A stretch of 64,000 bases of DNA, from sequence record MK234886, one strand, 5' to 3'. Within the stretch, counting starts at the first letter, position 1; every line of letters begins with the position of its first letter. The translations under genes and the position numbers were made by a program. This document shows positions 1,445 to 40,422 of this stretch, piece by piece. The notes below the pieces were generated by a model that made no database searches, had not been told where the DNA came from, and saw only the letters and a program-made list of their open reading frames with translations. This stretch comes from Escherichia phage AnYang.

Positions 1445-3123
1445 TCCATCACCGTGAATCGTCCAACTTTCTTCATCTGAAGATGTTGGCCATAAGCTTG
1501 TGGGTCATGGTCTCGGTGAGAGATAATGAACACGTTCGTATCCTCAAGGCTATTCAAGATGGTTGCAATGGTCTTAACGCCTTCAGCGTCAGTAGCACTG
1601 TCAAATACCTCATCAAGAATTAACGTGCTGATATTAACACCTGATACCTTAGAAGCAATATCACGCCATGTAAAAAGGAGTGCGATATCAATACGTGCTT
1701 TCTCACCCTGTGAAAATGAAGCATAACTAAAGTCTTCACGTCCACGTGATTTAATCGTCTCATTGAACTCTTCGTCTAGTGTAAAGACGTAGTCGGCTTC
1801 CATAATCTTCAAATAAGAATTTATCTGCTTATTAAAGATAGGAATGTATTTCTTAATAATGGAACCTTTAATACCGGTATCCTTCAACATTTCTGTCAGA
1901 ATTCCACGATGATATTTTTCCATTACCAAGGACGATTTGGTAGAGACGATTTTATCAAGCTCTGCTTGAAGCGTGGCAATCTCTTCGGCATTACTTACGA
2001 ACTCAGCAGCTGCTTGGTCAATTAATACTTTAACCTTTTTAGCTTTCTCTACAGCAGTAATGGCTTGTTGCTTATGAGTAGCTATCTGAGATTTAATGGC
2101 CAGCGCTTTATTACGTTGTTCGGTTACTTGGTCCTTAATGAGCTTGAGTTCTTGGTACTGCTCATTAATCTTATCCAAAGATTTTTGAAGCTCAAAGTTC
2201 TTATCCTTAATTTTAGTAAGGATGTTTCCATGCTCTTCCAGTCCTTGCATACATGTAGGACAACTACCACCGGTTTCGTATAATTTCACGACCTTAGTAA
2301 AGGTTGCCATATCATTCTTGATTGCAAATCCTTTATTGCTCAGGTCACTCATAGAGTCGCTAGGGTCATCATCGACTATGACATTGAGTAATTCATCAGT
2401 TAGTTTTTCTATATTGCCCTTCGCAGTCCTGGCTTCTTTAACGAGCTCGTCATACATTACTTGTAGACGTGCAGCGTTCTCACCAGATAATTTACGCTGG
2501 CGTTCTTCGTTGTCATTATAAATTTTAATCTGTTGGGTAATAGAATCCTGTTTAACGTCGATTACTTGGATTTGGCTATTAGTCTCACGAATCAAAGATT
2601 TGTTCAACTTGTCCATATCCGCTAATACAGAAACCTCTAACAGGTCTTCCACAAGCTTTCGGCGCGCAGGGGTCGACAAACCCATGAAAGGGGTATACCC
2701 TGCTGTACCAAGTACGACAATCTGTTTGAAACTGGCATATGACATTCCGATAAGCTGTTCAAATTCTGCTTGGAAGTCTTTACTGCTGGCAGATTCATCA
2801 AGACGTTCACCGCCACAAGAGATTTCAAAAATATTGGGTTTTTGCCCGCGTTTGATATAGTATTCTTTGCCATCATATTCCATCCACAGTTCGACCAAAA
2901 GGTCTTTCTTATTACTTGAGTTAATCAACTGCCCTTTCTTAACATCACGAAAAGGCTTACCGAACAGAGCAAATGTAACGGCTTCAAGGAACGTAGATTT
3001 CCCAGCGCCATTTTTACCCGTGACTAAGGTCTTTTGGACCTTATCAAGTTGGATTGTAATAGGTTGCTGGCCTACCGACATAATATTTTTATATGTTACT
3101 TTCTTTAACTTAAAAGTCTTCAT
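1441..3123 (-). CDS. 46: recombination endonuclease subunit gp46 (Rad50/SbcC-like ATPase)
   Basis: Walker A GKNGAGKST, Walker B LILDEVFD, coiled-coil middle; start set to MKTFKL as in T4 (560 aa). Confidence 0.93.
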   Translation of the reverse strand: MKTFKLKKVTYKNIMSVGQQPITIQLDKVQKTLVTGKNGAGKSTFLEAVTFALFGKPFRDVKKGQLINSSNKKDLLVELWMEYDGKEYYIKRGQKPNIFEISCGGERLDESASSKDFQAEFEQLIGMSYASFKQIVVLGTAGYTPFMGLSTPARRKLVEDLLEVSVLADMDKLNKSLIRETNSQIQVIDVKQDSITQQIKIYNDNEERQRKLSGENAARLQVMYDELVKEARTAKGNIEKLTDELLNVIVDDDPSDSMSDLSNKGFAIKNDMATFTKVVKLYETGGSCPTCMQGLEEHGNILTKIKDKNFELQKSLDKINEQYQELKLIKDQVTEQRNKALAIKSQIATHKQQAITAVEKAKKVKVLIDQAAAEFVSNAEEIATLQAELDKIVSTKSSLVMEKYHRGILTEMLKDTGIKGSIIKKYIPIFNKQINSYLKIMEADYVFTLDEEFNETIKSRGREDFSYASFSQGEKARIDIALLFTWRDIASKVSGVNISTLILDEVFDSATDAEGVKTIATILNSLEDTNVFIISHRDHDPQAYGQHLQMKKVGRFTVME

Positions 3124-37331: not shown

Positions 37332-37366
37332 TATTTATACAAAAAGCCCAACCTTTCGGAAGGGCT
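37332..37366 (-). promoter_or_regulatory. terminator plus late promoter (TATAAATA) module
   Basis: minus-strand hairpin AGCCC...GGGCT with U-run, then TATAAATA about 28 nt upstream of the CTS gene ATG. Confidence 0.5.
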
Positions 37367-37371
37367 GTAAA

Positions 37372-37926
37372 TCAGTTCTTATAGAATCGGAACGGGTTTA
37401 CGTGGAAGGCTAACATAGCCTTAGGGATTTTACGAGACAAAAGACTCTTAAGTTTCCAACCACAGTACACGCGAAGGTAAAAGGTAATACCTCCAACCTT
37501 AAGATAAGGAACCGAAGCAAAAACTCCCCATGCGTCATCATTCCACATCCATAGCCACCCGTGATGAGCTTTATCAGGGGAACCTGATTCCACATCAGGA
37601 TTACCGCGATAATGGAATTCTGAGCTACAATCACGTCCGAGTTTATGGTAAGCAAAGTTATAAGCTTTATTTCGCCATAGCCAAGCTACTCTCTGGAGAT
37701 AAACGCCAAAAGGTAGTTTTCTGATTTTAGCCCAACGTTTAATGTGACCTTTATCACCGTCAATTGGATTATCGTATGTCATCATCCAATCAAAGCCATA
37801 TGGTAATTTACCGGTCTTTTTATTGTGGAAAGGGACTACAAAAGGTGCAAGGATAACAGCCAGAACCATAGAGATAAAATCTAGAGGGACCAACAGAACC
37901 CAACTCAAATATTTTAAAAGTTTCAT
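37372..37926 (-). CDS. membrane-anchored Trp-rich protein expressed from a late promoter
   Basis: 184 aa, N-terminal TM helix, AGGAAAT SD. Confidence 0.55.
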   Translation of the reverse strand: MKLLKYLSWVLLVPLDFISMVLAVILAPFVVPFHNKKTGKLPYGFDWMMTYDNPIDGDKGHIKRWAKIRKLPFGVYLQRVAWLWRNKAYNFAYHKLGRDCSSEFHYRGNPDVESGSPDKAHHGWLWMWNDDAWGVFASVPYLKVGGITFYLRVYCGWKLKSLLSRKIPKAMLAFHVNPFRFYKN

Positions 37927-37952
37927 ATTATTTCCTAAGTTAGTTTACTACA

Positions 37953-37989
37953 TATTTATACAAAAAAGGCCCGACCTTTCGGAAGGGCC
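37953..37989 (-). promoter_or_regulatory. terminator plus late promoter (TATAAATA) module, second copy
   Basis: GGCCCTTCCGAAAGGTCGGGCC hairpin with U6, then TATAAATA; near-duplicate of the module at 37332-37366. Confidence 0.5.
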
Positions 37990-38225
37990 TTTAACCTAGG
38001 GTAACCTTGTCGGGGTTCCACCTGCTAGGCAAGTGTTCGGTGCGCCGTTTCAGCTGTGATATAAGGGACTTTAAGAGGAACTCATGTACGCCTTAAAGTC
38101 GGGTCTTATTCAGGGAACTTCAGTCCGACGACTTACCGGTAGCGACCCGGTTTCTTGTTTGTTGCGCCGGTGAATGCTGGTAATCAGTCTTCATACGACG
38201 GCTTGACTATATAATAGTCTTCATT
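37990..38225 (-). ncRNA. candidate small stable RNA(s) distal to tRNA-Arg
   Basis: 236 nt non-coding gap between tRNA-Arg and a terminator; internal hairpin GACTTTAAG/CTTAAAGTC; T4 has stable RNA species 1/2 at this position as I recall. Confidence 0.3.
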
Positions 38226-38300
38226 TGGTATCCCGCCCTGGGATCGAACCAGGACCGCAAACTTAGAAGGATCGTATGCTATCCATTACACCAGCGGGAC
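38226..38300 (-). tRNA. tRNA-Arg (anticodon UCU)
   Basis: hand-folded cloverleaf: acceptor GTCCCGC/GCGGGAT, T-arm CCTGG-TTCGATC-CCAGG, anticodon loop CTTCTAA, encoded CCA. Confidence 0.8.
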
Positions 38301-38305
38301 GTAAT

Positions 38306-38971
38306 TCAAAATTTTATTTTACGGCCTTTATTCCAACCTTCAGGAATAATATCCGTTTTGTTAATACGTTTAGAAACTTTTTCTTCTAAAGAATGAATCC
38401 ACATTTTTCCATATCCGGAATTATTTTCACCTTGTTGGTGTTTATTTCTGGCGTGAGATTCTTTCATTTTATTTTTGGTTTCATCTGAATGGGTCTTACC
38501 CAAGAAAGATTTAGTATTTGAAAATTTCTCTCTATACTTAGGATTATCCCAAAGTTGTTTAAACCTTTCTGAACCCATTTTACGATATTTTTCTTTAAGG
38601 TCTGGGTCGTTCTCAAATCTGGTTTTAAAAGCGGCAACTCCTTTTAAGGAAGCTTCTTTCTTTTTATCTAAATATTCTTCAGTGTTTAAATGGTCCCAAC
38701 CACCTTCACCGCCTAATTTCAAATTATAAACATCGGGGCGCTTTAAAAACTCTTCAGTCACAATATTCTTTTCTGACTCAAACATAGAGATTTTATCGTC
38801 AAAGAACTCTAATATTTCTTTAGAGAAATTTTCTATACCGTATTTGGCCTGGGCCCTTTTCAAGAGTTTACCGGAACCAAAATATGCATCATTCAAATTT
38901 TCGGTTGAATGGGCTCCTATATAGATTTTATTATTAATTTTGTTTGTTATTTTATAAGTGTAATGGAACAT
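38306..38971 (-). CDS. segB: GIY-YIG homing endonuclease (SegB-like)
   Basis: 221 aa; N-terminal YKITNKINNKIYIG GIY-YIG motif; sits between the two tRNA genes. Confidence 0.8.
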   Translation of the reverse strand: MFHYTYKITNKINNKIYIGAHSTENLNDAYFGSGKLLKRAQAKYGIENFSKEILEFFDDKISMFESEKNIVTEEFLKRPDVYNLKLGGEGGWDHLNTEEYLDKKKEASLKGVAAFKTRFENDPDLKEKYRKMGSERFKQLWDNPKYREKFSNTKSFLGKTHSDETKNKMKESHARNKHQQGENNSGYGKMWIHSLEEKVSKRINKTDIIPEGWNKGRKIKF

Positions 38972-39012
38972 AAATATCTCCTATTTCTAAGAGTATTTAT
39001 GTTCTCAAAATA

Positions 39013-39083
39013 TGGCCCTGGGTGGAATCGAACCACCATCCAGCGATTATGAGTCGCTCGCTTGACCGTCCAGCTACAGGGCC
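39013..39083 (-). tRNA. tRNA with CAU anticodon (Ile-lysidine type or Met)
   Basis: hand-folded cloverleaf: acceptor GGCCCTG/CAGGGCC, anticodon stem AGCGA/TCGCT, loop CTCATAA, T-arm GGTGG-TTCGATT-CCACC; CCA not encoded. Confidence 0.7.
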
Positions 39084-39088
39084 TTAAT

Positions 39089-39355
39089 TTAAATTACAAA
39101 TCCAGCAGGAGCATTATCATCTTTAGCCATGTGCTGAATTGTATGATAAGTCATTTCTTCAGGAGCAACCAGATAAGCCGCAGCGTTAACTAGTGGAATT
39201 ATTTTTGGTTTAGCGAATGTGCTATCGGCAATTGCCATAAAGGGCTCGCCGTCGGTCTCAACTTCACCAAATTGGCATTCATATGAAATAGAACAACGTT
39301 TGGTAGTTGTTGTCTTGGTTTCCGGGTCATAAAAAGCTAATTTTAATACTAACAT
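39089..39355 (-). CDS. hypothetical protein
   Basis: ORF-track start is GTG; ATG at 39355 with GAGGTG SD chosen. Confidence 0.45.
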   Translation of the reverse strand: MLVLKLAFYDPETKTTTTKRCSISYECQFGEVETDGEPFMAIADSTFAKPKIIPLVNAAAYLVAPEEMTYHTIQHMAKDDNAPAGFVI

Positions 39356-39484
39356 AAACACCTCAAATAAAATTAAGTAAAGTAAGTTTGATTAATAGAC
39401 CTTGTCTATTATGAAAGGTTCTTTGAGGGAAGAACCTTTGGTAATAGAGGGTATTAATGATAGAGTAATAATATCACATAATTC

Positions 39485-40392: not shown

Positions 40393-40422
40393 ATAGTATC
40401 ACCACTAGAGCCCGTTGTAAAC
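40393..40422 (-). promoter_or_regulatory. T4-type early promoter
   Basis: GTTTAC -35, TACTAT -10, GGGCTCTAG/CTATAGCCC imperfect inverted repeat. Confidence 0.5.

Follow-up and report, generated by a model that had tools for sequence, protein, structure and literature searches.

The stretch analysed here, 64,000 nt of Escherichia phage AnYang (record MK234886; called the window throughout), carries a compact tRNA locus whose features are all read on the minus strand (Table 1). From 5' to 3' on that strand, a tRNA gene with a CAU anticodon, a segB-like endonuclease gene, tRNA-Arg(UCU), an element of 66 nt, a homologue of T4 rnaD (stable RNA species 2), a conserved trailer and an intrinsic terminator follow one another, and rnaC (stable RNA species 1) is absent. 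At the homologous locus of T4 (NC_000866) lie seven tRNAs, segB, tRNA-Arg, rnaD (119 nt), rnaC (139 nt), the trailer and the terminator. The best genome matches of the region were the Dhakavirus phages IME540, LQ5 and LHE83, at 95-97% identity, by which the window is a Dhakavirus, that is, a T4 relative of the JS98/IME08 group. Its components are all of known kinds: a T4-type tRNA operon, SegB, rnaD and an intrinsic terminator. We consider it very likely that the locus is the ordinary 3' end of a T4-type Dhakavirus tRNA operon that lacks rnaC, with an Ile2-like CAU tRNA at its start and a putative truncated rnaD copy ahead of the full-length one.

Table 1 Features of the tRNA/rnaD locus, in the order in which they are read (positions of the window).
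Feature	Position	Strand	Basis
tRNA with CAU anticodon	39013-39083	-	ARAGORN; Rfam RF00005, 62.6 bits; no CCA encoded
segB 5' leader with ribosome-binding site	38972-39012	-	100% identical to the T4 tRNA-Ile/segB intergenic sequence
segB-like GIY-YIG gene, intact, 221 aa	38306-38971	-	Pfam; alignment with T4 SegB
tRNA-Arg(UCU), CCA encoded	38226-38300	-	ARAGORN; Rfam RF00005, 48.8 bits; T4 allele
66-nt insertion relative to T4, putative 'mini-rnaD'	38156-38221	-	Rarity, similarity to rnaD, model match, fold
rnaD homologue (T4 stable RNA species 2), ~118 nt	38038-38155	-	Alignment to T4 rnaD, covariance model, fold, covariation
Apical cassette of rnaD P3, 'type A'	38059-38105	-	Three unrelated types between identical cores; inverted repeat I1
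Conserved 3' trailer, about 45 nt	37993-38037	-	Hairpin CACUUGC-CUA-GCAGGUG, then GAACCCCGACAAGGUU
Intrinsic terminator	37962-37992 (stem 37965-37992)	-	Terminator scan; inverted repeat I2 AAAGGCCC/GGGCCTTT, then U-tract

ARAGORN detected exactly two tRNAs across the whole window and Rfam RF00005 (gathering score 29) agreed, being the only Rfam family to exceed its gathering threshold anywhere in the window; no further tRNA appeared when RF00005 was run at E ≤ 10 over 37800-39300. The first-pass annotation of this DNA, which had reported only these two and named a covariance-model search as the check, had therefore missed none, and it had also stated correctly that T4 has eight tRNAs at this locus. 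Its description of the cluster as reduced is overstated, as the genus norm is a small set (CAU, Asn, Arg) and related Dhakavirus and Gaprivervirus phages have two or three tRNAs at the locus: CAU, Asn and Arg in IME08 and DCP80, CAU and Arg in WG01, VR20 and VR26.

The CAU tRNA is 100% identical to the IME08 allele and 93% identical to a tRNA(CAU) of the Vequintavirinae phage W70. It occupies the operon slot of T4 tRNA-Ile, to which it is only about 64% identical, and it shares the CAU anticodon with the lysidine-modified tRNA-Ile2 of E. coli and its prophages. The E. coli genes nearest to it, at 79.7% identity, bear the annotation tRNA-Ile despite a CAT anticodon. The anticodon stem-loop, GCGACUCAUAAUCGC, matches the one in E. 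coli ileX, and the pairs C4-G69 and C5-G68, which TilS uses, are present. Most likely, it is thus an AUA-reading, lysidine-modified tRNA of the Ile2 type rather than a tRNA-Met. In 68 open reading frames (ORFs) of the window, AUA occurs at 10.0 and AGA at 7.1 per 1000 codons, two to three times the average use in E. coli. As predicted from their anticodons, the surviving pair decodes AGA and, if the CAU tRNA is of the Ile2 type, AUA. The second tRNA, tRNA-Arg, is 100% identical to T4 over 84 nt including its flanks (5 nt upstream and CCAAATG downstream), and IME08 has a different tRNA-Arg sequence; by these identities, the window carries the T4 allele and not the resident Dhakavirus one. The same pairing of AUA and AGA decoders was seen in the chromosome of E. 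coli strain 504838 (extract L036, 301-611), where tRNA-Ile(CAT) and tRNA-Arg(TCT) stand together with tRNA-Thr and tRNA-Gly beside a DNA methyltransferase gene.

The 236 nt between tRNA-Arg and the terminator (37990-38225) had been described as non-coding on both strands and as not foldable into a tRNA. Correspondingly, we found no ORF of at least 30 aa within 38000-38225 on either strand, and neither ARAGORN nor the Rfam tRNA model (E ≤ 10) gave a match inside. The segments of this region were delimited by aligning the window with T4, IME08 and WG01, four-way as well as pairwise. This included the alignment with T4 rnaC and rnaD that the first-pass annotation had proposed, and it showed rnaD conserved, rnaC not there and 66 nt extra compared to T4. 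The T4 stable-RNA genes were the right comparison; of the suggestion that the 236 nt take the place of species 1 and 2, the part concerning species 2 stands, while species 1 is missing.

The window rnaD aligns to the annotated T4 gene (NC_000866 71053-71171; T4 extract L001 3054-3172), its 5' core with 96% identity to T4 and 100% to IME08 and its 3' core with 90% and 95%, respectively, and it scored 115 bits with an rnaD covariance model whose training alignment includes the window sequence. It lies 70 nt downstream of tRNA-Arg, on the same strand and inside the tRNA cluster. The two phages share the homologous cores, the position downstream of an identical tRNA-Arg and upstream of a common trailer and terminator, and an equal predicted fold. 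They differ in the apical part of helix P3, where T4 has a cassette (type B) unrelated to that of the window (type A), in the additional ~70 nt after tRNA-Arg in the window, and in the 3' end, which reads ACCA in T4 and ACCG in the window and is followed by rnaC in T4 but by the trailer in the window. No homologue of rnaC (T4 NC_000866 70908-71046) was found in the window locus. By alignment this is a clean absence of 139 nt, and the end of the window rnaD (...GCGCACCGAACACTTGCC) is joined directly to what in T4 comes after rnaC, so that only the neighbourhood of rnaC is shared. The gene is also absent from IME08 and IME540 and present in the Dhakavirus WG01. Rfam release 15, in which rnaD has no family, gave no family inside 37990-38225, either at gathering thresholds or at E ≤ 10; the sole overlap was a chance-level match to RF02744 at the terminator end (37909-37996, 9.9 bits against a gathering score of 88, E 5.6). 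In T4, RNAC and RNAD are Northern-validated transcripts classed as late (PMC9697503), and the function of rnaC and rnaD is described as unknown in the literature (PMC9697503, PMC3014915, PMC12685909).

The fold of rnaD was derived in this analysis, not taken from the literature, from 27 distinct sequences of Tequatro-, Dhaka-, Mosig-, Gapriver-, Karam- and Jiaodavirus, all genera of the subfamily Tevenvirinae; the W70 copy was aligned as well. It consists of a 5' hairpin (P1), the long-range helices P2a and P2b, a UGA/UCA closure and P3. RNAalifold, run independently on a plain MAFFT alignment, returned P2a, P2b and the base of P3 with compensatory changes in 8 of 14 pairs; here, P2a comprises CGUCG/CGGCG and a G-C pair across a bulged U. 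With P1 and the UGA/UCA closure included, a model of 22 pairs was 92.9% paired on the MAFFT alignment, compared to 34-50% when the partners were slid by one to three columns. On the model-fitted alignment, pairing reached 96.7%, with changes on both sides in 11 of 23 pairs. Covariation is visible in P2b, where (A/U)GUU goes with AGC(U/A) in T4-like phages and UUAAU with AUUAA in Karamvirus, and at the base of P3, which shows A-U, G-C, C-G, U-A and other pairs. The single-sequence minimum free energy fold of the window rnaD equals the comparative structure and places a 9-bp stem at the tip of P3. By this comparative evidence, rnaD is a structured RNA family with a covarying fold. Two other structural readings were discarded. 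A local hairpin AGUC-GUCG-GACU in place of P2a does not fit Karamvirus, which has GGCAU there, while CGUCG/CGGCG is invariant. A hammerhead or K-turn, considered by eye for the internal loop CUGAUG...GAAA, conflicts with the loss of this motif in Karamvirus and Jiaodavirus and with a helix topology that is two-way, not three-way.

The near-invariant core strands of rnaD, AAGUCGUCGG, UCCCUG, UCA and ACGGCGC, flank an apical cassette that is exchanged between phages. Among the T4-like phages, the cassette has at least three unrelated versions, and it can differ where the phages are otherwise nearly identical. Type A is found in the window, IME08 and JS98 and in the Gapriverviruses VR25 and DCP80, type B in T4, the Dhakavirus WG01 and VR20, and type C in IME540 and the Tequatroviruses LH2 and ZN18; a shorter fourth version occurs in Karamvirus, Jiaodavirus and W70. 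The window cassette is 97.9% identical to that of IME08 but only 74.5%, which is noise level, to that of IME540, the closest genome overall. In the genomes compared, the cassette types hence do not follow genome relatedness. The first-pass annotation had pointed out a 9-bp stem and internal direct repeats in the 236 nt. The stem is present as described (inverted repeat I1, GACTTTAAG/CTTAAAGTC, at 38067-38075 and 38092-38100), but it is not free-standing, being the tip of the exchangeable apical hairpin of rnaD. The direct repeats are likewise there, AGTCTTCAT occurring twice and TGTTCGGTGCGCCG and TGTTTGTTGCGCCG forming a second family. By chance statistics alone, stem and repeats are unremarkable and gain their meaning from the comparative evidence.

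Matches to rnaD number about 800 phage records. Each rnaD collected belongs to a tRNA cluster and has a tRNA gene shortly upstream, as in T4, IME08, WG01, W70, CC31 and Jiaodavirus. The gene also occurs in two Vequintavirinae phages, W70 and A73. In W70 (extract L019, 1418-1593), an RNA of the family (98.8 bits) starts 2 nt after the tRNA(CAU) that is 93% identical to that of the window, with a compensated P1 hairpin sequence and a short P3 of the Karamvirus type; A73 is identical to W70 over the rnaD stretch queried (L019, 1493-1596). These observations suggest transfer of a tRNA-rnaD module across phage families. The rnaD of Karamvirus and Jiaodavirus is flanked by tRNA-Asn and tRNA-Asp. The ~130 nt that follow it are conserved and free of ORFs and start with a hairpin CCGAAAG...CUUUCGG (CC31 extract L025, ~779-913; equivalent positions in extracts L026-L028, L029, L030 and L034). 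This stretch, which by eye is unlike T4 rnaC, may represent a further unannotated RNA. The rnaD model was also run on 200 of 240 loci from loose pattern scans of genome and metagenome contigs and gave nothing credible, a result that is uninformative either way; one partial match of 22.5 bits fell in a Pseudomonas stretch of 72% GC. Scans of IMG/VR gave nothing beyond known T4-like contigs and two chance matches.

T4 and IME08 lack the 66-nt element between tRNA-Arg and rnaD, which WG01 (100% identical) and IME540 carry. The element occurs in only 25 phage records, all of them 98.8-100% identical. It is predicted to form a hairpin GACUAU/AUAGUC, followed by AAG-C-CGUCG...CGGCGC closing a small hairpin, and its fold z-score is -3.0, better than 198 of 200 shuffles. 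The element can be aligned collinearly with rnaD (AAGCCGUCG...GACUGAU...CAGCAUUCACCGGCGCAACAAACA versus AAGUCGUCGGACUGAU...CAGC(U/A)GAAACGGCGCACCGAACA), with a similarity of z = 3.5-4.2 against dinucleotide shuffles (p about 0.002), and the direct repeat D1 is the 3' end shared by the two. When the rnaD model was run unfiltered over the whole window, 38160-38223 was the second-best match (15.6 bits, E 0.017), the next one scoring 10.1 bits. In this match, a P1-like hairpin and the strands of P2a are aligned, and the central part of the model is passed over. On balance, we favour the reading that the element is probably a tandem paralogue of rnaD with an internal deletion, a putative 'mini-rnaD'.

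The first-pass annotation had also stated that a GIY-YIG gene similar to SegB separates the two tRNAs and had viewed the locus as a T4-type tRNA region with such a gene embedded. Both statements are correct. The 221-aa product matches Pfam GIY-YIG (PF01541) with 24.2 bits at a cut-off of 22.6; for the DNA-binding motif NUMOD3 (PF07460), it scores 19.4 bits, just below the cut-off of 20.4. Aligned without gaps along the whole length (221 of 221 aa), it shares 76% of its residues with T4 SegB (78.8% identity at the DNA level), and its gene is free-standing within the tRNA cluster. Like T4 SegB, it has a GIY-YIG domain, lies directly upstream of tRNA-Arg and is preceded by an identical 5' leader. 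It differs as a divergent allele in a Dhakavirus backbone, with a different CAU tRNA upstream and T4's other six tRNAs absent. T4 SegB cuts preferentially in tRNA-Asn of segB-less relatives (Brok-Volchanskaya et al. 2008, PMC2330249), and homing proceeds with 94-99.6% efficiency and excludes the recipient tRNA genes for Met, Tyr, Asn and Arg (PMC2330249).

The segB gene of the window occupies exactly the slot of tRNA-Asn in IME08, and the T-loop of IME08 tRNA-Asn, GGTTCGAATCC, fits the SegB core motif GGTTCRANTCC. Shared with the IME08/JS98-type region are the CAU tRNA (100%), rnaD with its cassette (98-100%), the trailer (98.6%) and the absence of rnaC. In place of segB, the T4-type tRNA-Arg and the 66-nt element of the window, IME08 carries tRNA-Asn and a tRNA-Arg of its own. 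By these identities, the locus is a recombination mosaic, its CAU tRNA, rnaD and trailer being of the IME08 type and its segB leader and tRNA-Arg of the T4 type. An ORF of 90 aa at 39089-39361 (minus strand), between a trna.2-like gene and the CAU tRNA, has no Pfam match; as it is 98% identical in WG01 (ORF140) and IME540 and has no counterpart in T4 or IME08, it is a further piece of the mosaic. The drop from three to two tRNAs fits homing of SegB into tRNA-Asn, in one event or a series: an endonuclease of the SegB type would have cut the resident tRNA-Asn, and repair from a segB-carrying donor would have replaced tRNA-Asn together with the resident tRNA-Arg, leaving the AUA- and AGA-reading tRNAs. 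The sole exact match to GGTTCRANTCC in the window lies in the CAU tRNA (39024-39034, minus strand), and tRNA-Arg has one mismatch; even with segB on board, the genome may thus retain a weak site for SegB, as has been reported for T4 itself.

For two parts of the locus, another identity is conceivable. The CAU tRNA could be a methionine tRNA, elongator or initiator, as the label given by ARAGORN from the anticodon and the tRNA-Met annotation of most phage records would have it. We regard this as improbable, as its nearest E. coli homologues are tRNA-Ile genes with CAT, it sits in the tRNA-Ile slot of T4, and AUA is used at 10 per 1000 codons. The 236 nt, in turn, could be a decaying, non-functional remnant of the rnaD/rnaC region that merely spaces the operon from its terminator. 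The loss of rnaC, an rnaD centre strongly unlike that of T4, a thermodynamic z-score of just -1.2 for the window rnaD and the report that the T4 tRNA region is not essential for phage development (PMC2330249) would all suit such a remnant. It is nevertheless highly improbable, considering that the rnaD cores remain 90-100% identical even between genera in which the flanking genes no longer resemble each other above noise level, that the helices are maintained by compensatory changes, and that the divergent centre is a well-formed replacement hairpin common to other phages instead of random decay.

The 66-nt element leaves more room for other origins. It takes the position of IME08's own tRNA-Arg, MAFFT forces the two into alignment, and both are followed by CAAACA-AGAAACC, from which one could propose an eroded tRNA gene, either the resident tRNA-Arg or tRNA-Asn. 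However, aligned to 12 tRNA genes of IME08, T4 and VR20, the element scored at chance; comparisons with IME08 Arg, Asn and Met and the eight T4 tRNAs gave z-scores from -1.2 to 2.5 (16 comparisons in all). Since it also has no ARAGORN or Rfam tRNA match even at E ≤ 10 and is collinear with rnaD and with P1 and P2a of the rnaD model, we hold a tRNA origin for very unlikely. The more serious competitor, though the less probable one in our view, is an unrelated insert that produces no RNA of its own and whose likeness to rnaD is a coincidence or marks a recombination junction. The low model score would be expected of such an insert, the p of about 0.002 was computed after the pattern had been noticed, and the copies lack sequence diversity. 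On the other side stand the rank of the match, second-best in 128 kb of searched strand, its location 4 nt from the true rnaD and on the same strand, the retained hairpin-AAG-N-CGUCG...CGGCGC architecture and the fold that outperformed almost all shuffles.

Several points weigh against the picture of a mosaic operon with two rnaD-type RNAs as a whole. The stable RNAs of this phage are deduced from homology to T4. The covariance model includes the window sequence and has an effective sequence number of only 2.59, and the shuffle controls exaggerate significance, given that the rnaD sequences share ancestry and have recombined. P2a is invariant except for one compensatory change from G-C to A-U, so that this helix rests mainly on thermodynamics and context. 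For the putative mini-rnaD, the match to the model is a modest one, at 15.6 bits and E 0.017 for the whole window, and its near-identical copies permit no covariation test. The homing scenario is a reconstruction from mosaic identities, and with segB 79% identical to T4 but its flanks 100%, more than one exchange must have occurred. The most speculative part of our explanation is a protein-binding role for rnaD.

With regard to this role, it is possible, and we propose it only tentatively, that rnaD binds a protein through its invariant internal loops and the CCC bulge and does not act by base-pairing with mRNA. This pattern of invariant loops and bulge, compensated helices and an exchanged tip suits a scaffold for a protein more than an antisense regulator, and under this proposal the apical cassette would be a module that is either dispensable or serves to tune specificity. 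A search for antisense targets was without a candidate: the longest exact complementarities of the 262-nt RNA region to the rest of the window were 11-13 nt, which is chance for 64 kb, and a single 15-mer was another copy of the terminator hairpin near 37351. Still more conjectural, and in our estimate unlikely, is the extension to a modular phage RNA with a conserved core (P2a, P2b, CCC bulge and UGA-UCA), a horizontally exchanged specificity cassette, two tandem members at this locus and a tRNA-linked role. If it were true, the mini-rnaD would keep only the core-closing helix, the family would travel with tRNA genes across Straboviridae into Vequintavirinae, and possible roles would include countering host defences that target tRNAs or sequestering a processing or translation factor.

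As such, the locus represents ordinary, well-understood T4-type genome architecture, and its significance is modest. It would offer a clean natural example of how homing of the SegB type can reshape a tRNA set, with tRNA-Asn lost and tRNA-Arg converted to the donor allele. Compared to the searched literature and Rfam 15, three aspects are new, namely the covarying fold of rnaD with its cassette exchange across genera, the occurrence in Vequintavirinae and the putative truncated tandem copy; all three are incremental. Ever since rnaD and rnaC were discovered in T4, the literature has listed them without a function, and most relatives lack an annotation for them. The fold, the cores and the cassette provide experimental handles, as do the independent rnaC loss and the presence in Vequintavirinae, and the data could seed an RNA-family model. 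For annotation, we suggest marking the CAU tRNA as Ile2-type and adding rnaD to the Dhakavirus records.

Downstream of rnaD, the trailer is near-invariant in about 20 loci; in T4 it follows rnaC (extract L001, ~2865-2908, minus strand). Its core, GCAGGTGGAACCCCGACAAGGTT, does not vary among T4, WG01, IME08 and the window, and its 7-bp hairpin carries a variable loop (CUA, CUUG, CUUA or CUU). The trailer persists in VR26 (extract L017, ~1225-1260), where the rnaD model found no match. RNAalifold returned two hairpins for the trailer, with almost no variation to test them; in the terminator, one compensatory change from C-G to G-C was found among relatives. The trailer could be a processing signal or a small RNA derived from the 3' end.

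The strongest minus-strand match to a sigma-70-like promoter lies upstream of a trna.4-like ORF (40393-40421), the first terminator downstream of it is that at 37962-37992, and the late-promoter motif TATAAATA does not occur inside the tRNA/rnaD unit. From this arrangement we infer one transcription unit. The region would accordingly be transcribed as a single unit up to this terminator, and host tRNA-processing nucleases would release the tRNAs and a stable rnaD RNA of ~118 nt; a mini RNA of ~66 nt and a trailer bearing the terminator are possible extra products. Directly after the terminator, a copy of TATAAATA (37953-37960, minus strand) stands upstream of a DUF7338 gene (37372-37926), and after this gene a second copy of the terminator-hairpin core, GCCCTTCCGAAAGGT, is present at ~37351-37365 on the same strand.

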